DNA from: an uncultured Bacillota bacterium
GTDB taxonomy: Bacteria; Sysuimicrobiota; Sysuimicrobiia; Sysuimicrobiales; Segetimicrobiaceae
NCBI GenBank assembly: GCA_963804645.1
Contig: CAWDRG010000005.1
Location: 288,001-352,000, forward strand
Reading direction: 5' to 3'
DNA: 64,000 bases
In this document: piece by piece, positions 13,279 to 25,788 of the stretch
Layout: each line of letters begins with the position of its first letter
How positions within the stretch are numbered: position 1 is the stretch's first letter
Made by a program: the position numbers and the translations under genes
Notes under the pieces: generated by a model
What the model was told of the DNA's origin: nothing
Database searches by the model: none
The model's input: the letters and a program-made list of their open reading frames with translations, nothing else

Positions 13279-13441
13279 TCGCCTCCGGATCGCAACGCCC
13301 TGCCGGCGCGCCGCGCGCCCCCTAGTACTACAAAGTCACGATTCTGGCAGGATTTTGCCCGCATGTGCCGAACAGCGGTAGTCGCGTACGCATACATCGC
13401 ACCTCTTGTCGCAGCAGACGTCGTCGTAGCAGGTGTCGCCG

Positions 13442-14652
13442 ATGGCCAATGCGCCGCCTTTTGCCGATCCCGATCTGCGTCAGCGGTTGATCGAGTACCT
13501 CACGGCCGTCCTGCCGGAGTTGGGCCGCAAAGATCGCCGACCGTGGGCGCAAGCGTATGTGCGCGGCTTGCTGCTGGAAGGCGAGCGGAAATCGATCGAA
13601 CCCATGGCCAAGCGCTTGCCGGACGGCAATGTGCAAGCCATGCAGCATTTCATTGGAAAGAGCCCGTGGCCGTATGAGCCGGTCCGCCGGCGGTTGGCTG
13701 GTGTGTTGTGCGCGGAAATGGGCTCCGGGCTGTGGATCGTCGATGACACCGGGTTTCCCAAGCAGGGCAAGCATTCCGTCGGGGTGGCGCGGCAGTACTC
13801 GGGCACGTTGGGCAAGGTGGCCAACTGCCAAATCGCGGTCAGCCTGCACCATGCCACGACGCTGGCGAGTCTGCCCATCGACTGGGCGTTGTACCTGCCG
13901 GAAGCCTGGGCCGCGGATCGCGCGCGCTGCGCCCGCGCGGGCGTGCGGCGGCGTCCGTGGACTACCGCCCCAAATGGCGGTTGGCGCTCGAGATGATCGA
14001 TCACGCTCGACAGTGGGGCCTGGGGGACCAACGCGTCGTCGCCGATGCTGGCTATGGCACCATCGCCGATTTCCGTGCGGGCTTGCGGGAGCGGCAGTTG
14101 CCCTATGCCGTGGGCGTCGAATCCGGCACGGGCGTGTGGATGCGGTATCCGCGACGTCGGCGGCACCCACCCACCGTGCGCGGCCGGCCGCGTACGCGCT
14201 GGGACTACGGGGGCCAGCGGCCGCCCAGCGTCCTCGAGGTGGCGCGCGCGTTGCCAAAAGCCGCTTTTCATACTGTGACGTGGCGCGAAGGGAGCCAGGG
14301 CCAGCTCCGGTCGCGCTTCGCGCACGTCCGCGTCTGACCGTCCCACGGCTTTCATGAGGGCAAGCCGCCGGAGGCCGAACAATGGCTGCTCATCGAGTGG
14401 CCGGCCGACGCCGCCGAGCCGACCAAATACTGGTTCGTCACCGGCCCGCGGCGGCTGTCGCTGTTGCCACTGGTGCGCTGGGCGAAGGCGCGCTGGCGAA
14501 TCGAGCAAGATTATGAACAGTTGAAGGGCGAACTGGGCCTCGACCACTTCGAAGGACGCCGCTGGCTGGGCTGGCATCATCACGTGACGATGACCACAAT
14601 GGCGTACGGGTTTCTCGTGCGCGAACGGCTTCGTCCCCTCGGGAGTAAAAAA
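13442..14652 (+). pseudogene. IS701-family DDE transposase, main part (frameshift near 13950, in-frame TGA at 14335, interrupted at 14652)
   Basis: IVDDTGFPKQGKHSVGVARQYSGTLGKVANCQ, VADAGYG and RWRIEQDYEQLKGELGLDHFEGRRWLGWHHH motifs. Confidence 0.92.
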
Positions 14653-14655
14653 GGT

Positions 14656-14762
14656 TCATCCGGCATTTTCGGGAATTCCAGGAAACGCGGCCATGATCTT
14701 CAGGAAGAAGTAGCCATCGTCTCGGTAGCCGTACCCCATGCGCTTGAGGACCTTGATCTTGT
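14656..14762 (-). CDS. ISL3 transposase 3' exon
   Basis: (N)KIKVLKRMGYGYRDDGYFFLKIMAAFPG, the canonical ISL3 C-terminus; joins the 5' exon in frame. Confidence 0.9.
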
Positions 14763-16677
14763 GGTGGGTAGAGGACGGCCTCGGATCGACCCTTGCGCCG
14801 TCCTCCCCCCGCAGAACCCGGCGTGCAGGTTTCCCGCACCGGGCTCCCCAGAGCGACATTCACGCCTCGGCCTCGTCAGACCGTCGGATGTAGAGTCTTC
14901 GGGCGTGGCAGTTCAAACCACGAGCGGCTCCTGAGGTAGCTCCAGAACAACCGGTGCCATTGGCCGCGCCGACGCAACGTTCTTAGCCACTGGAGCTGGA
15001 CCTCATGACAGACCCAGTCCAACTTCCGCTCGCAGTGGTGTAGGGCGAAGTACTGGTAAAATCCCCGCAGCATCGTCGTAAGGTGAGCCTGTTGCGCCCG
15101 GCGATTCCAGTGCATATGGCTCCTGAGCCATTCATGGGTGCGATCCAGAAACGTCCTGCAGCTGTCGTGTGCCGGAATGCGCACCACGGCGAACTTGCCC
15201 CGCCGGTCCCTACCGCACACGTGCTTGAAGCCCAGAAATACGAACGTGCCTGGCTTCTCTCCATGTGCGGCGGCCCGCTTTCGGGCCTCTCGCCCAAACA
15301 GCAGTAGGCGCGTCTTCTCTGGTTTTAACTCCAGGCCGAACTTCTGCATCCGCTCCGCCAGTTCGCGGCCGAAGGCGTTCGCTTCCGCCTGATGCTCGAA
15401 ACATACCACGAAGTCGTCCACAAACCGAATCAGGTGAGCGGCCCCTTGACAGCTCCGCTTGAACCGTCGCTCGAACCAGAGGTCGAGGACGTGGTGCAAG
15501 TAGAGATTGGCGAGCACGGGGCTGATCGGATTGCCTTGCGACACGCCCTCCCTGTTTCGGACGACAACTCCGTCGTGCATCACCCCGGCCCTGAGCCACT
15601 TGCCAATGAGCCTCAGGATTACGGGATCGGCGATGCGATGGGCCACCATCTTCCGTAACCAGTCGTGATTGATGCGTGTGAAGTACCCGCAAATATCCGT
15701 CTCGAAGACGTACTGTGCTTTCCCCGCAATCAGATGGCCGCGAAGATCTCGCAATGCCTGGTGCGGGTTACGCCCGGGCCGGTATCCGTATGAGCACTCC
15801 ACGAAGTCCTGCTCGTAGATGGCGCTGAGAATCCGCGCCACTGCGCGCTGCAGTAACCGGTCTTCCACCGTGGGAATGCCGATCGGGCGCATAGCCGACG
15901 TGTCCCCAGGTTTGGGGATGTCTACCCGTCGCACCGGTGGAGCCTGATACCGCCCTGCTTTCAGTCGTTCCCAGAGATCGACGACCCGTATCTCCAGATC
16001 GCGCTCGAACTGCGCGCATGTCTCTCCATCCACTCCGCTGGCACCCCGCCGGTTCATCTGCTGCCAAGTTTCTTTCAGAAACTCTGGCGTCAGAATGTGC
16101 GCCAGCGACGTGAAGCGGCACTTCGGGTCTGCCTTGGCTTTGATCGCTATCCCGGCCAGTCCGGTGGTCACCCTGATCCTCCCTCTGAAGGTGGAGGGGA
16201 TGTTTCCCCGACCAAGGTCGTACGCTCTGCCCCGCCGCTTCCCCATGTACGCGGCTCTCCCGCGCTCCGAGTACTACCAGCGGGTCCGACTTCCACCGCG
16301 GCGTTTGCCTCTCTTCGGTCGAACCATCTCGATCGGCATACTCGATCCACTCGATCAAGACCGCGGTGGATCTCCCAGGTCCCTCGACGCGTCCGTCTCC
16401 GTCCGTGCCGTGCTCTCAGACCCCGCCGGGGTCTCCGGCATCCTCGCCCTAACGGATGCGTACTGTTGCCTTCCACGATAACAACCGTGTCGGCCCCCGG
16501 ATTAGGAAGTCACGAGGCTCAATCGCTTCCTTTGCAGTACGGCCCGGACGTCGCCCTGTCTACGCTTAGCCCATGTCGTTACCTCCATGAGCCCAAGACT
16601 CGGTTCCCGGTGGGTGGCTGGCCCTTGCCGGGGCGGGAATTGCACCCGCTGGACGCGCCAGATTTGTCCTGGCGCGC
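14763..16677 (-). mobile_element. Group II intron 1 (1915 nt) in the ISL3 transposase
   Basis: 5' end GCGCGCCAGG. Domain V GAGCCCGGTGCGGGAAACCTGCACGCCGGGTTC at 14846-14814. Domain VI hairpin with bulged A at -7 (14769). Removal restores EGIN-NKIK. Confidence 0.92.
14876..16171 (-). CDS. ltrA: Group II intron reverse transcriptase/maturase, no endonuclease domain
   Basis: GASGVDG, RPIGIPTVEDR, SYGYRPGR, VSQGNPISPVLANLYLH and RFVDDF motifs. GTG start chosen for the GGAGG RBS (open frame extends to 16246). Confidence 0.92.
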   Translation of the reverse strand: MTTGLAGIAIKAKADPKCRFTSLAHILTPEFLKETWQQMNRRGASGVDGETCAQFERDLEIRVVDLWERLKAGRYQAPPVRRVDIPKPGDTSAMRPIGIPTVEDRLLQRAVARILSAIYEQDFVECSYGYRPGRNPHQALRDLRGHLIAGKAQYVFETDICGYFTRINHDWLRKMVAHRIADPVILRLIGKWLRAGVMHDGVVVRNREGVSQGNPISPVLANLYLHHVLDLWFERRFKRSCQGAAHLIRFVDDFVVCFEHQAEANAFGRELAERMQKFGLELKPEKTRLLLFGREARKRAAAHGEKPGTFVFLGFKHVCGRDRRGKFAVVRIPAHDSCRTFLDRTHEWLRSHMHWNRRAQQAHLTTMLRGFYQYFALHHCERKLDWVCHEVQLQWLRTLRRRGQWHRLFWSYLRSRSWFELPRPKTLHPTV

Positions 16678-17809
16678 TGTTGATGCCCTCGAGGAGGCTG
16701 GTGTGTAACGGATAGCGACAGTGCGCGATGATCCCGGGGAGCCGCATCTTGAGATGGCGGGCAAACGTCTTGAGGGGTTCAATGCGACTGCGGATGGCAC
16801 GGTGGTACCAGTCGGTGAAGAAGCGGGTGGCGGCGCCAGGATAGGTATAGTCCCACATCTGCTTGAGATCATCCTTCAGCACGTAGACGGCCGCAAGCCG
16901 CCGGTTGGCTGCCAAGAGGTCCTGGAGTCGTACGCGATCCTCCGGTTTGACGTTCTCACGATTGCGCAAGAGGAGCCACCGCGCGCCTTTGATCACCTTG
17001 CGGGCTTCTTTGTCGCGCCGCACGCGATTGGCTTCGTCCACGCGCACCCGGTCAATGACTTCGCGCCCGTACTTGGCGACCACGTGGAAGAGGTCATAGA
17101 CAAGGACCGCGTGCGGACAATGGGCGCGCACTTCTTCTTCGTAGGCCGTGTTCATATCCATCACCACCGCCTGCAGACGCTTGCAGCCCTCGCCACCTAA
17201 CAGCGCGAAGAAAGGACGGACGTCGTCGCGACTCCGGCCTTCGCCGACCCAGAGCACGCGTTTGCGCCGGGGTTCGACCACCACCGTGGCGTAGCGGTGG
17301 CCCTTTCGCAGGGCGAATTCATCCATCGCAATCGTTGTCACGTTGGACAGGTCCACCGGGAGCAACTGCTCTGCCAACGCGGCCACGTCCAGGTTTTTCA
17401 CGGTGTCCCAGTCGAGGCCGTAGAACTCTGCCACGTGCTTCACCGGCAGGATGCGGCAGAGCCGGACCACGCTCTCCGCCAGGCGCTTGGTCACCCGGTC
17501 CCAGGCCGACAGCCAGGACAGGGCCTCGATTTTGGGGCCGCACGTGGGACAGGCAACGCGGTAGCGCGGCACCCATACGTGAGTCTCGGCGTCGAGCAGC
17601 GGCAGATCCCGGATGCAGCGGACCACCATCTCATGCGCCTTCGCCGTCTCTTGGCCGCACCCGGAGCACCGGAAGGTCCGCTTCTCGCGGGCCAGCGTGA
17701 TCTCCACCCGCGGTTTGCCGGCTCCCGTCGTTGGTTCGATGCGCTCCACCAGCTTCACCCGATAGCATTCCCACCCGACCAGCACATTGGTAGACTGATC
17801 ATGAGGCAA
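16678..17809 (-). CDS. ISL3 transposase 5' exon
   Basis: CSGC...CPTC zinc finger, IAMDEFALRKGHRYATVV, VVMDM, YDLFHVV and LLEGIN motifs. Confidence 0.93.
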
Positions 17810-18105
17810 GGTGCTCCCCCTTCCCTGAAGCGCCGTGTTCGCAGCACGTGCTCAAGGATAGGGGTGTGGTACCTTGCCTTCAACCTATACGGCTATCCCG
17901 GTTTTGCCTGAAGAACCGTAAAAAAACCATAATGGCAAAAGTAGCATCGGCGGCATGTGCGACCACTGATGTCGAGGATTCATCCTTAGGCATTCTGAAG
18001 ATCAACGACGGCGAAGTGACGCGTCAGGCACTCGAGCACAGCAGTGATCATTGTACGCAAATCAGTTCGAGTCGTGAACGCGATAGAGAGACGCGTCGTG
18101 GAAGA

Positions 18106-18334
18106 CTATAGGGGCTTGCTCGGGGCGGAGGTTTGCCAGAGCTGTTCCAGTCGGGTGAGGAATGCCTCAGGCGCTCTTCGGTATCGCGCTCTCTGACGTC
18201 GAGGTTCCTGACTCGCGGCCCAACGTTGCATCTCCGTCCGGTATTGGTCGGTGGGAACGTGAGCAAACCATTCGATCAGGACGTCTGGAGGCAGATCGAC
18301 TGCATATACCGCCAATGCTCCGTACCGCATAATG
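18106..18334 (-). pseudogene. C-terminal part of the unclassified IS transposase
   Basis: (Y)IMRYGALAVY...RARYRRAPEAFLTRLEQLW. Joins GRKSWDG in frame once 18335-20879 is removed. Confidence 0.8.
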
Positions 18335-18342
18335 TAGCCCTC

Positions 18343-18375
18343 GGTAATGGTAGCGTATGAAACGCTACCACTACC
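18343..18375. repeat. 33-bp hairpin, left cassette end
   Basis: GGTAATGGTAGCGT-ATGAA-ACGCTACCACTACC (14-bp arms, one mismatch). Confidence 0.9.
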
Positions 18376-19146
18376 GAGGTCTGGGTGGTGGGAGCGGCAG
18401 CGGTGGTGGCACCACGCCCGGCGGAGGCAGTCCCGGGGGTGGGAGTCCCACTCCGGGTGCGAACTCCGGTCCTGGAAGCAGCGGTGGGAACGGGGGAAAC
18501 GAGCTCCGTGGCCCCCACTTCTCCGGCCAACACTGTCATTACTATATGGCCCGTAACTCCGGCGCCCGCGCCGACGACGCCGGCGGTCCCGGCAGTGCCT
18601 GCTGCACCGACACCGGTTGCGGCGACACCGGCAGTGGGCCGACACCCGCGAGGCCTCCAGTGGCGCCGGCGGCCGCTCCTGCGCCAGCGGCTCCGCAGCG
18701 TGCTGGGTTCGGCCCCCCCGTGCTCGGAGGTAGCGGGCCGACTGTGGTACTCGGCGCCCCGCGTCAGCACGGCGCCGGAACATGCCGCTCTCAGGGCGGT
18801 TCAAGGACAGCCGACCAAGTTACCATTTGGGGGCATGTCGGAAACAAAGCGCTCCCTAAATCACGCTCGGACGCTGGATTGGAACGCTCATGGCTTCAAT
18901 GGGGGCGATTTTGTTCGGGTGGAAGGTCGAGTAGTTGGAGAGCGCCTGGCACTTTCAGTTCGCGGTGCGGCCGGAGAATCGGGATACCGCTGCTCATCTG
19001 GGGCGCCGGTACGGGTGGTGCGCCTGTCTTGCAAAAAGCGGATTCCAGCGTCGATTCTGAGGTTACGAGCCGAACGACGGCACGGTGCCGGACATCCCGG
19101 CAGCGAGACGTGCGTCACGCGGTGGGACGGCCCGCTGAGCCCGTGA
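18376..19146 (+). pseudogene. Probable 3' fragment of a Gly/Pro/Ala/Thr-rich exported protein gene, captured without its start
   Basis: Low-complexity GGGSGSGGGTTPGGG and PAPAPTTPAVPAVP linkers start right at the hairpin and switch frames. No clear RBS/start; followed by a terminator-like hairpin. Confidence 0.4.
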
Positions 19147-19154
19147 CAACGCAT

Positions 19155-19184
19155 CGGGGAGCGAGTGCGAACCCTCGCTCCCCG
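19155..19184. terminator. Hairpin between convergent ORFs (probable terminator)
   Basis: CGGGGAGCGAG...CTCGCTCCCCG, 11-bp stem. Confidence 0.6.
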
Positions 19185-19234
19185 TCAATTTGAAGAGACT
19201 TGGTCGCGTTCCTTAACGCTTTACCGGTCTCCGA

Positions 19235-19879
19235 TTAGCGCCTCACCTTGCGGCGAAGCAGACCGGCGGCGCCGACCAGTCCGAAGGCGAACATCGAGAG
19301 CGAACTCGGTTCCGGTACGGGATTAGGGGCGATCTGGCCGGCTGAGATCTGTCCCTCCAGATCAAACCATGCGGTGCCAGTGTTCGCCAAACCGCTGCTG
19401 CCTCCCACGAGAACGGTGCCGCTGTCCAGGCTCGGGCTGATGTTAGCAAAAGTGGCGCTCGCGCTCTCGTAGTCATTTGGGTCGGTAGATGTGAAGGAGC
19501 CGCCGCACTGAGCGGCCGTTGGGCTGGGAGAATAAGTGCCGATGCATGCACCGTCGCCGTCAAAGCCAAATACTCCGCTACCCACGCCGCCGGTGATCGC
19601 AACGCTCTTCAGTGTGCCACCCGACGAATTCAGAACGCCGATCAAGGTGTCTTCGATGCCGTCGAAGGGCCCCTGATCAGGCGATGCCGTGGTGACATTA
19701 AACCCCGTGGCTACGTCTGAACTGTTGACCGATGTAACCGTAAGCAGCAGTTCGCATCCATTAGTGTCATTACCGACAGGCGGGCACTCGGTAAAGGAGG
19801 CGGCATACACTGCGGGGGTGACTGCCCAGAGAAGCACCGCTACCGCAGTCAGCGCAATACCCCATCTTATCGTCCTCAT
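19235..19879 (-). CDS. PEP-CTERM sorting-domain protein
   Basis: Signal peptide, Ser/Thr/Gly-rich body with four Cys, C-terminal PVPEPSSLSMFAFGLVGAAGLLRRKVRR, AAGGAGGT RBS. Confidence 0.9.
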   Translation of the reverse strand: MRTIRWGIALTAVAVLLWAVTPAVYAASFTECPPVGNDTNGCELLLTVTSVNSSDVATGFNVTTASPDQGPFDGIEDTLIGVLNSSGGTLKSVAITGGVGSGVFGFDGDGACIGTYSPSPTAAQCGGSFTSTDPNDYESASATFANISPSLDSGTVLVGGSSGLANTGTAWFDLEGQISAGQIAPNPVPEPSSLSMFAFGLVGAAGLLRRKVRR

Positions 19880-20335
19880 GCACTTACCTCCTTGATCGCT
19901 GTGGTCGCTGTGGCATTGCTGGGTGGGCTACGGCATCCCCCCTCTCGTTCCGGGGCGACGAGGATCGCGTCTGCGGAGCGCTGACGCCCTCGGCGCGGAG
20001 TCTGACCTCGGAATGGGGCTCGCTGTCCGAACCCATCCTCCATCGAACTCGAATGTGCTTTCCCGTCCCACGGGGGAAATCTTTGTATCACTTGAATGAA
20101 ACAGGCCACAAAAACGAACGACCGCTGGTCGGTGCGGGTTACGAACGTGGCTGCCGAGGCGATTCTGATTACTTCCTTTGAAGGAGGCTTTGGAAGGAGG
20201 CTTTCTGGACCGGGGCGGCAGCAGTCCGGCGCGCACGTCATCCCGCGAGATGCACAGCTTCGCCCCGCGGCGTCGGTTCACTCGATTCGGTCCGCGCGGA
20301 TGGCCGAGCCCAGCGCCGGGCCTGGTCGAGGCTCT

Positions 20336-20844
20336 CTAAACGGGCGGTCCGAAGCGGGTGCGCGAGCGTCGCAGCGCGGCACGCAGCCCCGGGCGGGCCA
20401 ACTGAAGCGGCGCGCGACCCACCGCGTATCGTACCGTGAGCGGCGGCCGGCGGTGTTTGGTTGCGATCAGGCTTGCCACCTCGGCCCAGATCGCGCTCAG
20501 CAATCCGTTCACGGCGTGTCGGCGGGGCGCCGTGCGCCGATGCGCCAACGCGTGACGGAGCGCGCCGCGGAGCGCTTCGGTGCTCGTGGTGGGAGCGTCG
20601 GACGCGACCGCCACTCGGCGCGCCGCCCAGGCCAAGGCATCTCGCACCGTGTCCTGCCGCACGATGTGCGGGCATCGGGCGGCCGCGCCGATCATCTGGT
20701 CGGGAGCGAAAGCCTCGTCGGAGGCGTGCGCGAGCTGCGTGACGGTGAGCGCCTCGACGAGGGCACGAGCGTCCTCTCTCAGCGGACCGGTGGCAGCGGT
20801 CTGGGGGAGCTGCGTCAGGGCCTTGTCAATGATTAGCCGAACGG
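20336..20844 (-). pseudogene. Possible 3' fragment of a helical protein gene truncated by the cassette end
   Basis: Open frame with plausible helical composition begins at the right hairpin with no independent start. Confidence 0.35.
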
Positions 20845-20879
20845 GGTAGTGGTAGCGTTCCCCAAACGCTACCACTACC
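20845..20879. repeat. 35-bp perfect hairpin, right cassette end
   Basis: GGTAGTGGTAGCGTT-CCCCA-AACGCTACCACTACC (15-bp perfect arms). Confidence 0.92.
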
Positions 20880-21848
20880 TAGCCATCCCATGACTTGCGC
20901 CCCGTGGTTCGGCGGTGTGCGCTCTTGGCGTGGCGCAAGAACCGCTCCAGATCGTTGTTCGTCCGCGGGATCTCGGGGTGCAGAAAACAGGTGAACAGCG
21001 TGTCGCCGAATCCCTGGGTGTACTTTTGGAAGGATTCCGCGAACAGTTCGTGCGCTGGCTGAGTCACCGCGGCCTGTGCGACCGCGGCCATGAGCGTGCG
21101 CACTCCCATCTTCGCCTGCGCCGCAGCATCATGGGGAAGCACGCCAGGGTATTTCTCTGGATCGATGACCCGAGCGAGACCCAGTAACCACGTGTGTTGC
21201 TGCTTGAGCGTGGCGTAGTCAGCGCCGTAGATCTGGTGGCGAGTTGCGATGTGGGTCAGGGTCCGCATCATGGGTACGGGCCGGACCGCAAAGCACCGCT
21301 GCAGGGAGGCGTAGATACGCTCCAGATTCTCATAGGCGCGGATGCCCCCGGGTGCAAGTGGCGGCAGTCCGTTGGATCCCGTCGAGGGAGAGCACCAGCC
21401 CGCCGTTCTGCTCGATTTGGCGGCGCACCGCCTCGACTTGCTGGCCGGCCGTGCACCCGAGAAGTGCGAAGTACGCTTCGTAGAGGCCCTGGACGTGGCG
21501 CGCACTGATGATGACCCCGCGCTGGCCGAGCTCGGCATGGATCTCAGCCCGCGTGCAGTGGTCCACCGTCCGGAGGCGCCCCACCGTGACCAGCACGTCC
21601 ATGCCGTACGTCGAGCCCTTGAGGCTCAAGCCTTCGGCGACGGCGGAGCGGTACACGCGGCGGTCGCAAGCGGCAGTCCAGCATCGATACCCGAGGCTCC
21701 CGGCCCAGAGCACTTCGGACAGGCCGATGATATGTTTGCGCCAGACGGGGTGACTGTACACCAGAGGCGCCCCGCACACCAGACAGGTCCGGCATTCGGG
21801 GCGGAAGTAGACGCGCCGGGGAGCCGCAAACACACGCGCGCACCTCAC
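20880..21848 (-). pseudogene. Unclassified IS transposase, N-terminal and central parts, with frame break/internal deletion near 21373
   Basis: CLVC..C zinc-finger start, YGMDVLVTVGRLR..HTH, GGLVLSLDGIQ, then in another frame IPRTNNDLERFLR...RRTTGRK. GTG overlaps the upstream stop. Confidence 0.75.
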
Positions 21849-22234
21849 GGGCGCTTGCGGATCACCTCCGCAGGATCGAGTTGGGCGGCTTGCCGAAGGC
21901 GCTCCAAGAGACCTTGGAGCTCGACGTCGAGCGCGCGCAGGTGTCGAGCATGCGCCCGCCATCGCCGATACGCGCGGGCCGCTGTGCTGGCCGGACCCGC
22001 CTTGGTCGGCGCCACGGGGAACACGTGCGGCGTGCCCGCACGAAACACTGAGAGGCACCAATAGGGGCCGTGTTTCTTCCCCCGCATGCAGCGGCACCCC
22101 GGCTTCCCGCACACCCGGTAGCGCTTGAACAAAGAGCCGGTCAGAGTCGGCCCGATCGCTAACGCCTCCTCCAAGACAGCGGTTCTCAGGCGGTTCACCG
22201 CTTGCACCTTGGTGCGCAGGGCCTTGGGACCCAT
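21845..22234 (-). CDS. DUF6788-like small IS-associated protein
   Basis: GSL...YRVCGKPGCRC...HGPYW motif, GGAGG RBS, translationally coupled to the transposase. Confidence 0.8.
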   Translation of the reverse strand: MGPKALRTKVQAVNRLRTAVLEEALAIGPTLTGSLFKRYRVCGKPGCRCMRGKKHGPYWCLSVFRAGTPHVFPVAPTKAGPASTAARAYRRWRAHARHLRALDVELQGLLERLRQAAQLDPAEVIRKRP

Positions 22235-22393
22235 CCGCCACCTCCGTCTTCTCTATCTGCCACTAGTATTCCTTTTCATAATGCCAGATCTCAAACCAAA
22301 AAGAAAGGAGCATGCGAAGGAGCGCCGCCGAGCACTCCAGTCACCTGCTCCAGTGCCTGTCTATGGCCGTGATGCTACTTTTGCCATTATGGA

Positions 22394-22525
22394 AAAAAAA
22401 CGGCGCGCGTCCCCACCGTGCCGCAGGTGCGGGCCCAGCTCCAGTACGTCCTGAAAACCTGGACCGGTCGCTGCAGCGTCTGCGGTCACCTCGTGCGCCG
22501 TCCGACCAAGAATGACCCATCTTAG
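22394..22525 (+). pseudogene. IS701 transposase C-terminal tail
   Basis: KKTARVPTVPQVRAQLQYVLKTWTGRCSVCGH...stop continues LRPLGS from the 14652 junction. Confidence 0.8.
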
Positions 22526-22536
22526 ATGTGACTTTG

Positions 22537-24394
22537 GTCGAGTAGGACCAGCGATCGCTCGCTGGGACCCCTCTGCCGAACGGCTCGTACGGATCTCCCG
22601 TAAGCCGCTCTACCCCATGCCGACTCGTGAGTCATCAGGAATATATCCGAAGAGAGTGGAGCCCCAGACGGCGGTAGAAGAATGTTTCAGAGTATCGCCG
22701 CCAGTTCGCCGTGCGCCAGCGTTTGGCCATGAAGGCCCGCAGCCTCCGAAGGATCCAGCGGTCCAGCGGCCTCCCGATCCGTCGCAAGTCGCCAATCCGG
22801 AAGAATCGTCCCCAACCGCGGAGCACTGGATTTAGCAGCGCCACGATCTCGTCCGCCCGACGCGGTTGGTTACGCCGCGTAAGATGACGGACCTTGTCCC
22901 GGAGCCGCTGTATTGCTCGCGCCCGTGGCTGTAGGTGCAGTCCCTCCTCATCGCGCCAGAAGCGGAATCCAAGGAACTCAAATCCTTCCGTAATGTGAAC
23001 GACCCGCGTCTTCGCAGGATGCAGTCGCAGTCCCAACTGCCCCTCCAGAATCTGGTGGACCTGCTCCAAGGCCGCCTCGGCGTCCTCGCGCGTTCGGCAC
23101 ACGATGACACTGTCATCAGCATACCGGACCGCGCGATGTCCTGCCGCGAGCATCTGATGATCGAAGGTGTTCAGAAACGCATTACTGAGCAGCGGCGAAA
23201 CTACACCCCCTTGCGGGGTGCCCGCTACCAGGGTACGCTTCTTGCCCTCCTCCATCACCCCGGCCTGGAGAAACGCCTGCACGAGCCGGAGAATCCGCCC
23301 ATCCGCCACCACCTCGGCGACTGCGGCCAGCAGCCGCGCATGGGACGCGGTGTCGAAAAACTGTTCAATATCGATTTCGACAATCCACTCGCCCCCGTGA
23401 TGCAGGCTCGCCATCACATCGCCAATGGCCTGATGCGCTGACCGTCCTGGACGAAACCCGTAACTGGTCTCCGCAAACCGCGGCTCAAAGTGCGGTTCCA
23501 GCCGCAGACGCATCGCCTGCGCCACGACGCGATCTCGTACAGCAGGGATCGCGAGGCCGCGACGACGTCCATCGGGTTTGGGAATGTAGACGCGACGCCC
23601 GGGCTGGGGCACATAGGCATCGTCCTTGAGGGCCGCCTGGAGTCCTTGCAACTCCTCATCCAAGTGTGCCTCAAATGCCTCAAGGCTCTGACCATCCACG
23701 CCCCACGTCCCGTGGTTCGCCTTGACCAGCGTCCAGGCCCGCCGCAGATTCGGCAGGTACCAGACCTTGTCGATGAGCGAGCCGACCTTGATCGGATGCA
23801 CGTCCTCCGCCACTCCTCCTCCTTCCTGACCAGAGTCCTGTTGGTCGGGGTCTGCACCGGTCGCGGCTCGGGAGCTGCTCATGACAGAGATCCCTTACCC
23901 CGCGCTCGTCAAGCCGATCCCGCCTTCAGGCCACCAAGCATGGAGCGGGTCCCTTCGCTCTGCCAGGTTTCCCTGACCTCATCGCTACGTCTGGACCCGT
24001 CCGACTCCTGAACGTGCATCGGGTTGGCTTTTCCCCTTCCGGGTTATACCGTCCCTACCTGTCCGCGCAGGACCGAACCCTACTCGCGACAGGACACGCT
24101 CAGGCCTCCCCGGGTCATGCTGCTCTCTGTCCCACCATGCTGCCCGCACCCACGACTGATCCCCCCTGGTCTTCTCTGGATGCCCCTTCCTCCAGTACTA
24201 GCAGAGTCGGGCCTCCAGGGGTTCGCGCCGACCGGTTCGCCTGGCTTCGACAGCCTCGGCTGCGGCCTGGTGGTTTGCCTCAGGTCCTTCAGATTCCGCC
24301 TCGCGACGGACACCCTACCCTTTTCGGCTACGGTCCGCATCCAGCTGGACCGGCAGGTCTTTCACCTGCGAGAGAACAGCACTGCCGGGCACAC
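22537..24394 (-). mobile_element. Group II intron 2 (1858 nt) inserted in the IS701 right TIR
   Basis: 5' GTGTGCCCGG and 3' CCTACTCGAC. Domain V GAGCGGCTTACGGGAGATCCGTACGAGCCGTTC at 22610-22578. Bulged A at -7. Removal restores the TIR. Confidence 0.93.
22635..23813 (-). CDS. ltrA: Group II intron reverse transcriptase/maturase, no endonuclease domain
   Basis: SLIDKV, GVDG, LAIPAVRDR, SYGFRPGRS, GTPQGGVVSPLLSN, RYADD and LNPVLRGW motifs. GTG start after GGAGGAGG (open frame extends to 23882). Confidence 0.93.
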   Translation of the reverse strand: MAEDVHPIKVGSLIDKVWYLPNLRRAWTLVKANHGTWGVDGQSLEAFEAHLDEELQGLQAALKDDAYVPQPGRRVYIPKPDGRRRGLAIPAVRDRVVAQAMRLRLEPHFEPRFAETSYGFRPGRSAHQAIGDVMASLHHGGEWIVEIDIEQFFDTASHARLLAAVAEVVADGRILRLVQAFLQAGVMEEGKKRTLVAGTPQGGVVSPLLSNAFLNTFDHQMLAAGHRAVRYADDSVIVCRTREDAEAALEQVHQILEGQLGLRLHPAKTRVVHITEGFEFLGFRFWRDEEGLHLQPRARAIQRLRDKVRHLTRRNQPRRADEIVALLNPVLRGWGRFFRIGDLRRIGRPLDRWILRRLRAFMAKRWRTANWRRYSETFFYRRLGLHSLRIYS

Positions 24395-24399
24395 TAGTA

Positions 24400-25788
24400 C
24401 TAGGGTTTGGCGGGCGCGGACGGCGTGACGGTCGACGGCGCGTGGCTCGGCGTGATCGTCGAGCCGGGGCGTGTGGCCGGCGCCGCGCTGCCGGCGGGCG
24501 GCTGCAGGCCGAGAAAATCCTTAATCGGCTGCGGGAAGCTATCCAGCACCCCGGCCGCGAGCGTGTACTGGAGTCCGAGCGCGCGGTTCACCGCGACCCA
24601 CCCGTTGTACTGTTTGTAAAACTGCACCGTGAATCTCGCGTCGGCGCCGCCGTCGGTCTGCACCTCGAACGCCGGGGCGGCCGCGAACGAGGACGTCAGC
24701 GCCTGCACGCGGTCCGCGTCCATCAGGTTCACCGACGAAAACATGTCGGAGACGTTCTGATCGCTCAGGTCGCTCCCGGTAAACCCCGGGCCCTGACGGC
24801 GGACCTCGAGGGTCTTCCCGTTCCGGCGCCACGTGAACACGGTCAAGTCTTGAGGATTGTACGGCAGCACGTGGGTGCTGACGAGCGAGATCGGCGCGGG
24901 GGTCATCCGCCCGTCGAGGTCCGCGTCGAGCTCCATCACCGTGCGGCCGCCGGCGACCATCGCGTACGTCACCTTCGGCCCCTTCGCGAACAGCATCCGC
25001 AGGGGCTCCGGACGCCCCTTCATCGTGAGATCGAGCGTGACGTCCGGATGATCCAGCCCGTAGGGGGCCAGGTCGGTCACGCCGTCATGGAACACCTTGC
25101 CGTCGGAGGTGGTGAGCGGGAAGAACAGATCCGTGACCTTGAAATCGTCGGCCGGCCACGGCCGGCTCCCCTCGATGCGCCAGCGGTCGGGGCCGGTGCG
25201 GTCCACGACCAGCGATTCCGTCGGCGACGTGATGCGCACCTGCTGGACGTCGGCGTTCGCGAAGTCCGCGAGGGTCTTCTGGCGGAGGTCCGCGGCGGTC
25301 TTCGTCAGCCCATCCTTCGCGGTGCTGTCGACGACGTACAGCGAGGTGCCGGGGTCGAGCTTGGCGTAGAGCGCGTTGCCGACCGGCGACGGCTTCCCGA
25401 GCTCCACGGTCACCGATCGCCCGCCGGAAGTGCGCAGCGTCACGCGCACGGTCGGCCGGTCGAGGCCGTACGCCGCGAGATCGGTCGCGCCGCTGAGCGT
25501 CCGCTGGGGCACGATCCCGGTGACCGCGTCGAGGAAGTCCGAGACCGACAAGGAGGCCGCTGGGGTCTGAATCGGACGCGTGATCTGCCAGTGCGTGGGG
25601 TCGGTGCGTGACAGTTCGACCGTCTGGTTTGCGGTCGTGATCGTGATTCCGGTGATGTCGGCCTTCTTGAGCTGCACCAGATGGCTCGCCAGTTCCGCCC
25701 GCTGCGCCTGCGGCCGGTCCACCGCGAAGATGTACGCGGCGATCACCACCACGAGGCCGGCGAGGATGAGCGTCGCGCGGGGGGTCAC
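24400..25788 (-). CDS. DUF4340-type membrane-anchored protein
   Basis: N-terminal TM and repeated LAAYGLDRP/LAPYGLDHP motifs; last gene of a Gld-type operon. Confidence 0.82.
   Translation of the reverse strand: MTPRATLILAGLVVVIAAYIFAVDRPQAQRAELASHLVQLKKADITGITITTANQTVELSRTDPTHWQITRPIQTPAASLSVSDFLDAVTGIVPQRTLSGATDLAAYGLDRPTVRVTLRTSGGRSVTVELGKPSPVGNALYAKLDPGTSLYVVDSTAKDGLTKTAADLRQKTLADFANADVQQVRITSPTESLVVDRTGPDRWRIEGSRPWPADDFKVTDLFFPLTTSDGKVFHDGVTDLAPYGLDHPDVTLDLTMKGRPEPLRMLFAKGPKVTYAMVAGGRTVMELDADLDGRMTPAPISLVSTHVLPYNPQDLTVFTWRRNGKTLEVRRQGPGFTGSDLSDQNVSDMFSSVNLMDADRVQALTSSFAAAPAFEVQTDGGADARFTVQFYKQYNGWVAVNRALGLQYTLAAGVLDSFPQPIKDFLGLQPPAGSAAPATRPGSTITPSHAPSTVTPSAPAKP

Follow-up and report, generated by a model that had tools for sequence, protein, structure and literature searches.

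A transposase-free cassette bounded by two 33-35-bp hairpins within a transposase gene of an uncultured peat-soil bacterium

DNA stretches located between homologous MITEs (miniature transposable elements with inverted repeats), as well as cassettes that have only inverted-repeat ends, are mobilized in trans, and examples given by a review are E622, which moves bla, MITE-flanked integrons, and IR148, which moves the mcr-5 cassette by means of the TnAs1 transposase (PMC10969869). For one MITE family the review states a size of 39-400 bp (PMC10969869), and the parent insertion sequence (IS) is usually recognized by matching ends together with an equal duplication length (PMC6382973). This study concerns a 2,537-bp cassette that is bounded by two hairpins and interrupts the transposase gene of a decayed host IS in an uncultured bacterium (assembly GCA_963804645.1). 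The window, by which the whole stretch of analyzed DNA is meant, comprises 64,000 nucleotides of contig CAWDRG010000005.1 (positions 288,001 to 352,000), and all coordinates refer to it; the genome is a 5.3-Mb, 22-contig bin (96.8% complete, 4.2% contamination). IS-type inverted repeats also enclose the passenger genes of mobile insertion cassettes (MICs), for example MIC231, a derivative of IS231, and the Tn3-type and qnrS2 cassettes. Plant Pack-MULEs, which are eukaryotic and carry gene fragments, have terminal inverted repeats (TIRs) of at least 100 bp, 9-11-bp duplications and many copies, and are moved in trans by a Mutator-type enzyme. Among small palindromes, repetitive extragenic palindromes (REPs) number in the tens to hundreds per genome, and Y1 transposition leaves no duplication; elements of the IS200/IS605 type have no target duplication, no TIRs and imperfect subterminal hairpins.

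The borders of the cassette and the pieces of the interrupted gene are located as follows.

18335-18342: left copy of the target duplication, TAGCCCTC, with one mismatch.
18343-18375: left hairpin, GGTAATGGTAGCGT-ATGAA-ACGCTACCACTACC, with a 14-bp stem containing one A/C mismatch and the loop ATGAA.
20845-20879: right hairpin, GGTAGTGGTAGCGTT-CCCCA-AACGCTACCACTACC, with a perfect 15-bp stem and the loop CCCCA.
20880-20887: right copy of the target duplication, TAGCCATC, with the ancestral reading D-G-Y.
18106-18342, minus strand: C-terminal piece of the host transposase, (E)GYIMRYGALAVYAVDLPP..., corresponding to residues 452-528 of the intact homologue P0001 (91% identity).
20882-21372, minus strand: middle and C-proximal piece of the host transposase, which ends ...GRKSWDG, followed by TAG.
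21373-21833, minus strand: N-terminal piece of the host transposase, corresponding to residues 1-154 of P0001 and ending at an internal deletion.

A first-pass annotation of the window had proposed two hairpins built from one arm as the cassette borders and a flanking 8-bp direct repeat with one mismatch, and both are confirmed, the hairpins by the window sequence, by shuffling and by folding. The flanks TAGCCCTC and TAGCCATC form a direct repeat that is alike at 7 of 8 positions, and the outer arms, GGTAATGGTAGCGT and, on the other strand, GGTAGTGGTAGCGT, are inverted repeats that are alike at 13 of 14 positions, with the inner arms being the best-conserved arm pair (15/15). When up to two mismatches are allowed, the 14-mer arm is found four times in the window against an expectation of 0.23, a number reached by none of 100 shuffles. 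The DNA folds have energies of -18.8 kcal/mol for the left hairpin (z -9.5) and -17.8 kcal/mol for the right hairpin (z -6.9), and in both cases none of 200 shuffles was as stable. The arms are kept in the two hairpins, but the loops differ (ATGAA versus CCCCA), a pattern to be expected if the arms alone were important. The left palindrome, furthermore, extends outward by another 4 bp and so reaches into the flanking repeat (CCTCGG...CCGAGG), so that the one mismatched base of the repeat is also a base of the stem. The length of the duplication is ambiguous: it may be 8 bp, one of which changed later, or a perfect 5 bp (TAGCC), with the other three bases belonging to the element. A duplication of 8 bp is typical of IS256, IS66, ISL3 and Mutator-like transposases.

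The gene that is split by the cassette encodes a DDE transposase of ~529 amino acids (aa), and the minus-strand open reading frames (ORFs) on each side are parts of it. Eight longer relatives of the ORF piece 20882-21538 were found, seven of which are intact (509-534 aa, 38-90% identical). At the junction the intact homologues have ...TTGR(K/A)SWDGYIMRYG... without a break. All seven aligned homologues are uninterrupted across the region ...PRTNNDLERF.R..K...RR.TGR.SW..(Y/A/F)I.R.G...; the window transposase halts at ...GRKSWDG and TAG and resumes at (E)GYIMRYGALAVYAVDLPP past the 2.5 kb. Since the frame is continuous in all of these homologues, the insertion is codon-precise and lies between two adjacent codons, which bears out the earlier claim that removal of the cassette and one repeat restores the transposase frame.

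The cargo between the hairpins consists of the following features.

18376-19234: left cargo without a clear coding phase.
19235-19879, minus strand: intact gene for a PEP-CTERM sorting-domain protein of 214 aa (PF07589).
19880-20335: intergenic cargo with the 13-bp tandem unit GAAGGAGGCTTTG.
20336-20844, minus strand: 5'-truncated gene for the C-terminal domain of a GT2-type glycosyltransferase, starting at the right hairpin.

Comparison of 20 cargo ORFs with Pfam, and of five of these, together with four host-element ORFs, with NCBIfam, gave PEP-CTERM as the sole cargo match and no transposase or recombinase domain in the cargo, in agreement with the transposase-less cassette of the first-pass annotation. 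The PEP-CTERM protein has 208 homologues of similar length, the best of which are 62-67% identical; the two with a source name come from Candidatus Acidiferrales, the closest paralogue in the genome itself is 38% identical, and the gene is foreign to the host genome. Most 180-nt windows across 18800-20240, a region that includes this gene, have a G+C content of 56-62%, compared with 68% for the whole window.

The ORF at 20336-20844, which has a high third-position G+C content as in real coding sequence, matches residues ~230-396 of proteins of 397-418 aa (E 1e-8 to 1e-4) that have a GT2 glycosyltransferase domain in their first 220 residues. Because the match is confined to the C-terminal part of these ~400-aa proteins, the ORF represents a 5'-truncated gene that begins at the right hairpin; the fragment is without ~230 N-terminal residues, including the catalytic domain. 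Two shorter matches, P0011 and P0014, have no initial methionine and look like cut gene calls. No full-length GT2 donor was found, the best relative of the fragment being 33-37% identical. The alignment by MAFFT of a YHYP motif with the GT2 motif (A)YHFP, which has a rough chance of ~1 in 5, was treated as coincidence. Among 5.8 billion proteins, the longest plausible ORF of the left 860 bp matched itself alone. Thus, of the one intact gene and two gene fragments cut at the hairpins that had been described initially, the intact gene and the right-hand fragment are supported (PEP-CTERM and GT2), and the left-hand fragment, which has no homologue, is not. No promoter-like sites were found in 18200-21000, and a search for donor DNA, in which the cassette was compared with 22 other genomes of the family, gave just matches of 27-100 nt (E ~1e-4).

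A scan of metagenome contigs with the hairpin core yielded 11 loci, including two that represent the same locus in other metagenomes, namely L021 (5,111 nt; 99.4% identity over 3,469 nt) and L017 (1,945 nt; 97.6% over 1,946 nt). L021 contains both hairpins and has the left junction as in the window. Logan contigs of the public run X1, which is possibly the source sample of the window, bridge both junctions without a single difference (17918-18510 and 20374-21043). Part of the stretch is present in 17 public runs from six studies, and half or more of it in five peat-metagenome runs from two studies. As both junctions are found in two other assemblies and in public-run contigs, the arrangement is very unlikely to be an assembly artefact.

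These assemblies also provide the relative age of the insertion. The host transposase of the window has an internal deletion of ~145 codons (P0001 residues 155-299) at 21372/21373; in tblastn, residues 1-154 of P0001 align with 21833-21372, and its residues 300-468 with 21343-20834. This deletion is not present in L021, and contigs of X1 and of a further run, X8, diverge from the window at this point. L021 retains the middle part of the transposase and is without the block 14653-17917, which is an ISL3 element in the window; it therefore has the cassette without the deletion or the ISL3 block, which means that the cassette was inserted before both of these later events. Across the IS and cassette (17918-21372), L021 differs from the window by 7 substitutions over 3,455 nt (0.2%), but the 1,271 nt of chromosomal flank (13382-14652) contain 19 substitutions and a single 2-nt gap (~1.6%). 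The low divergence of the IS suggests that the IS region may have been exchanged recently between strains, or that strains were mixed in the assembly. In L017 (window 19374-21305), the covered 1,506 nt of the cassette contain 5 substitutions and the first 134 nt of the transposase flank none; from 21014 on, 27 substitutions follow within 262 nt, 16 of which are synonymous third-position changes. This mosaic could reflect either recombination with a sister IS that is ~10% diverged or a chimeric contig. A 1-nt deletion in the PEP-CTERM gene of L017 (window 19670) would shift the frame, suggesting that this cargo gene is not uniformly maintained. Selection on the gene may be absent in some strains, or the deletion may be a contig error. 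In the intergenic cargo, the window has one tandem unit GAAGGAGGCTTTG fewer at 20179 than L017, L021 and one contig each of X1 and X2.

No contig that joins across the cassette, as an empty allele would give, was found in four runs. In X8, a soil run from another study, the host-IS flanks are present at ~97.6% identity, one contig ends at 18337, another starts at 20884, and 18496-20739 is uncovered. This pattern might be taken as a hint only of a cassette-free allele; because no contig bridges the gap, it is not evidence of an empty site.

The cassette resembles MITE-flanked composites in its transposase-free cargo between two short repeats, its inverted outer ends, its target duplication and its presumed mobilization in trans. 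However, its units are only 33-35 bp long and consist of two arms and a 5-nt loop; neither a parent IS nor a further copy was found, and the event is a single one. Like MICs, it has one or more passenger genes between IS-type inverted repeats and no transposase; unlike MICs, whose ends match a co-resident IS, it has no known IS of this kind, its ends are full palindromes, and a truncated gene is present at one end. Outer inverted repeats, a target duplication and the lack of an internal transposase are thus features in common with both groups, whereas the several copies at different sites that characterize them are represented here by one locus in three assemblies. No element examined combines matching ends with an equal duplication length as a parent IS would. 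The term 'Pack-MULE-like', used in the first-pass annotation, is appropriate as an analogy of function, given the gene fragment between inverted repeats and a host gene that is distantly MULE/IS256-like. The cassette does not belong to this class: with arms of 14-15 bp and a repeat of 8 (or 5) bp, it is a single-copy element in a bacterial host, and only one fragment is verified.

There are also similarities to the REP/REPIN-RAYT systems and to IS200/IS605-derived palindromes, which are likewise small extragenic palindromes: the arm contains GTAG, and look-alikes occur downstream of genes. Unlike in REP/REPIN systems, the arm is represented in the genome by the two hairpins of the cassette only, and the palindromes adjoining the sole Y1 transposase gene of the genome (PF01797, C1:60157-60507) are unrelated to it. 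The cassette differs from the IS200/IS605 type in having a duplication and TIRs, and its hairpins are terminal.

Outside this locus, two solo look-alikes of the hairpins, L020 and L022, were found in metagenomes, both of which are intergenic. L020 (GGTAGTGGTAGCGTTTGAAACGCTACCAC) is located directly after the stop codon of a GGDEF-type gene (named by reading the translation) and agrees with the left hairpin in 27 of 29 bases, including the loop, and in 8 of 9 positions outside the search pattern. L022 (GGATAGTGGTAGCGTT-GGA-AACGCTACCACTATCC) is located just downstream of the 3' end of a gene and has arms that differ by one inserted base; L023 is the same sequence (the common 3,477 nt are 100% identical). 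The remaining loci of the scan (L016, L018, L019, L024, L025 and L026) showed no likeness past the 20 required bases and were set aside as chance matches.

The explanation preferred here, still tentatively, is a single and old trans-mobilized insertion of the MITE-flanked composite or mobile-insertion-cassette type, which is now a fossil. In such an event, an exopolysaccharide/PEP-CTERM-type neighborhood in the chromosome of another soil bacterium would have supplied ~2.5 kb of DNA that had become bracketed by two tiny palindromic repeats, each comprising a 14-15-bp arm, a 5-nt loop and the inverted arm. A DDE transposase acting in trans with an 8-bp stagger would have used the outermost arms as the left and right ends, and the whole unit would have been pasted into a copy of an unrelated IS via a cut-and-paste or copy-paste route. 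The element would now be immobile and simply inherited. Ends that are identical, inverted and not present in the target, the 7/8 repeat, the codon-precise break and the enzyme-free cargo together point to one DDE event in trans. Furthermore, the truncated GT2 gene, the different loops and the solo look-alikes favor each hairpin having been a separate small repeat, and the gene cut at the right hairpin fits a small unit that landed in that gene in the donor. The interpretation given in the first-pass annotation is plausible in kind and unproven; its predicted family is missing, and the element has been seen once.

Several observations weigh against this explanation. The left stem overlaps the putative duplication, the true length of which may be just 5 bp. 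Only a single event is seen, since neither the site nor the host element differs among the three assemblies. In the genome itself, the arm was found with up to one mismatch at the four cassette positions and in one single-mismatch match (nine matches for a reversed control), and inverted arm pairs with up to three mismatches within 10 kb occurred three more times, compared with 39 for the control. Two of these three pairs were scanned for ORFs and contain ordinary genes, a polysaccharide-export gene and an ABC transporter, and no parent element was found. Among 152 perfect hairpins in the genome with stems of at least 12 bp, one is the right hairpin of the cassette and none of the other 151 has the arm sequence. 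In the other 93 phylum genomes, no hairpin with the arm was found; one extra arm in the 94 phylum genomes (G059) was rejected as a single arm without a hairpin, with reversed controls giving a similar rate. The strict hairpin pattern had no matches in 185,579 species genomes and the core pattern had none in viral contigs, although these collection scans needed exact cores and would miss diverged copies. A looser core was found in one of 401 Acidobacteriota genomes, compared with nine genomes for the control, and blastn of the cassette against plasmids gave nothing. Five genomes contain closer relatives of the host transposase (42-46% identity); in four of them the arm with up to one mismatch is absent, and the fifth has one single-mismatch match, which is at the control level. 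Searching the literature for the arm gave one unrelated paper, in which the match is probably a primer.

It is also doubtful that the hairpins could have moved independently, because a unit of 33-35 bp is too short to bend alone into a synaptic complex. The first-pass annotation had predicted an autonomous IS with matching ends, other hairpin pairs with different cargo, and solo hairpins with their own duplications. No such IS was found in the genome, the 94 phylum genomes or the five genomes with relatives, and no such pairs in the genome, phylum and collection scans; neither metagenome look-alike, L020 or L022, has a recognizable target duplication. The outcome that it had named as refuting its proposal, with no arm copies and no transposase with matching ends, has largely come true. 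As the predicted family is missing, the proposal that each hairpin is a minimal mobile element can be drawn only from this single event.

A different arrangement of the same parts, considered unlikely, is one non-autonomous transposon (a mobile insertion cassette or a deletion derivative) with two inverted transposase-binding sites at each end, in which the hairpins were never separate and the inner arms are the second sites, comparable to transposons that have multiple sites at an end. The precise insertion and the 7/8 repeat are explained as well as by the preferred trans-mobilized composite, the inner arms are indeed the best-conserved pair (15/15), and neither a pair nor a solo copy with its own duplication was found in the collections searched. 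However, a truncated gene at the right end is not expected from the internal deletion of an IS, whole-hairpin solo look-alikes exist elsewhere and no parent transposon was found. A low probability is likewise assigned to the proposal that a hairpin of 33-35 bp is in itself a minimal transposon end-pair, the smallest described, two of which move kilobases of host DNA and gene fragments in the manner of Pack-MULEs. The mobilizer in this case may be the DUF6788-associated MULE/IS256/IS66-like family that hosts the cassette, on the basis of its 8-bp duplications and of subfamily ends that have TA(A/G)TGG and TAGC in common with the arm. Should the hairpins truly be transposon ends, a repeat would need no more than a 5-nt loop and two inverted binding sites to attract a transposase and carry any host DNA along; such elements could then be smaller than the limit known so far, and bacteria would have a route for moving gene fragments. 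As seen, the locus is a single fossil insertion, well documented, in an uncultured bacterium of peat soil, and it is mainly useful as a defined mobilization substrate.

The geometry of the hairpins (14-5-14 and 15-5-15), two of which bracket a transposase-free module, also resembles that of recombination sites. The lox, FRT, dif and hix sites have inverted 13-15-bp half-sites around a short spacer, and dif modules move between plasmids. The palindromes would then be core sites for a dimeric tyrosine or serine recombinase in a site-specific recombination module. This is regarded as improbable, as no such site is present at the target in intact homologues, the 7/8 flanking direct repeat is a signature of transposition, and no recombinase domain was found in the cargo or in 17 neighboring ORFs scanned; the spacers ATGAA and CCCCA differ, and thus the two sites could not recombine with each other. 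Neither the matching target site nor the identical spacers of a dif/lox-like module are therefore present. The capture of foreign DNA at a break within the transposase gene by illegitimate or replication-based repair, with the repeat and palindromes as by-products, would suit a single event without a family and could explain the extension of the left palindrome into the flank, as templated repair can give. It is nevertheless thought very improbable, since both ends carry one 14-15-nt sequence that is absent from the target and look-alike hairpins occur in unrelated DNA; moreover, the loops are not self-complementary and would not be made by simple fold-back synthesis. A chimera of the metagenome-assembled genome (MAG), for which the 22-contig bin with 4.2% contamination and the mosaic divergence of L017 could speak, is given almost no credence, because both junctions are present in two other assemblies and, with 0 differences, in contigs of X1, even though X1 is possibly the source sample.

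The host element in which the cassette resides has two further features.

17927-22392, minus strand: decayed host IS with 22-bp perfect TIRs and A-run flanks.
21845-22234, minus strand: ORF1 of the host IS, a DUF6788 protein of 129 aa (PF20586, E 5.9e-18), upstream of the transposase.

The TIRs of the host IS, CCATAATGGCAAAAGTAGCATC, are located at 17927-17948 and 22371-22392 and are complementary at 22 of 22 positions. With NCBIfam, P0001 scored 30.9 bits for IS66 (cut-off 180) and 26.3 for IS256 (cut-off 150), and ISH6 was matched weakly; with Pfam, Transposase_mut reached 19.5 (cut-off 21), and MULE and IS66 were also matched. The curated cut-offs of the IS66, IS256, ISH6 and ISL3 families were not reached. 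The host transposase family (~510-535 aa) falls below the cut-off of every curated model matched and is an uncurated DDE family. At least 503 loci belong to it, this being the number of relatives encoded among 607 candidate stretches of species genomes; the analysis used the best 80 of these 503 loci (L034-L113), ten of which are copies from one Planctomycetota MAG. The family ends are CTAGGnyGGCAAA...GCTG (located in five multi-copy sets and read in four), and those of closer relatives are of the CCAGTGrCGGCAGAA type. Fifteen of the 16 family copies for which flanks were read lie inside runs of 7-8 A or T, the exception being L053, which has a clean 8-bp duplication, GATCTTCT; the family makes 8-bp duplications and strongly prefers A/T runs. 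The target of the cassette, TAGCCATC, is unlike the A/T runs used by these 15 copies. In the genome itself, the cassette, the host IS and the flanks are each single-copy. The cassette also points to a transposase family that is widespread and uncurated and that strikingly prefers A/T runs.

The ends of the host IS (CTAGGnyGGCAAA..., or CCATAATGGCAAAAGTAGCATC in this copy) share just TAATGG and TAGC with the arm. The host IS was also considered as the mobilizer on the basis of its ends, which agree with the arm at 11 of 14 positions only when a 6-nt gap is allowed; the terminal bases differ, and the likeness was rejected as too weak. When read in the transposase frame (20845-20875, minus strand), the right hairpin gives AFGERYHY, and the wider transposase family has the motif FGSxRYHERR ~12 residues before the insertion point, with the 9-mer CGCTACCAC in common with the hairpin (L037-L113). 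As blastn-short found no longer likeness, this link was set aside as a probable coincidence.

Two neighboring elements were observed in addition, and a comparison of 14000-24600 with Rfam gave group II introns only. The ISL3 element at 14653-17917 adjoins the end of the host IS and has transposase domains, the ends GGTTCATCCGGC... and ...GCCTGAAGAACC, and the duplication GTAAAAAA; the block as a whole is missing from L021, which is otherwise nearly identical. A group II intron lies in the element, with Rfam matches at 14763-14848 and 16411-16642 and a reverse-transcriptase ORF at 14876-16246. A second group II intron lies beside the host IS (22635-24371), with a reverse transcriptase/maturase ORF at 22635-23882 and a weak D1-D4 match at 24255-24371, and it is probably multi-copy, since the depth in public runs jumps at 22423-22600.

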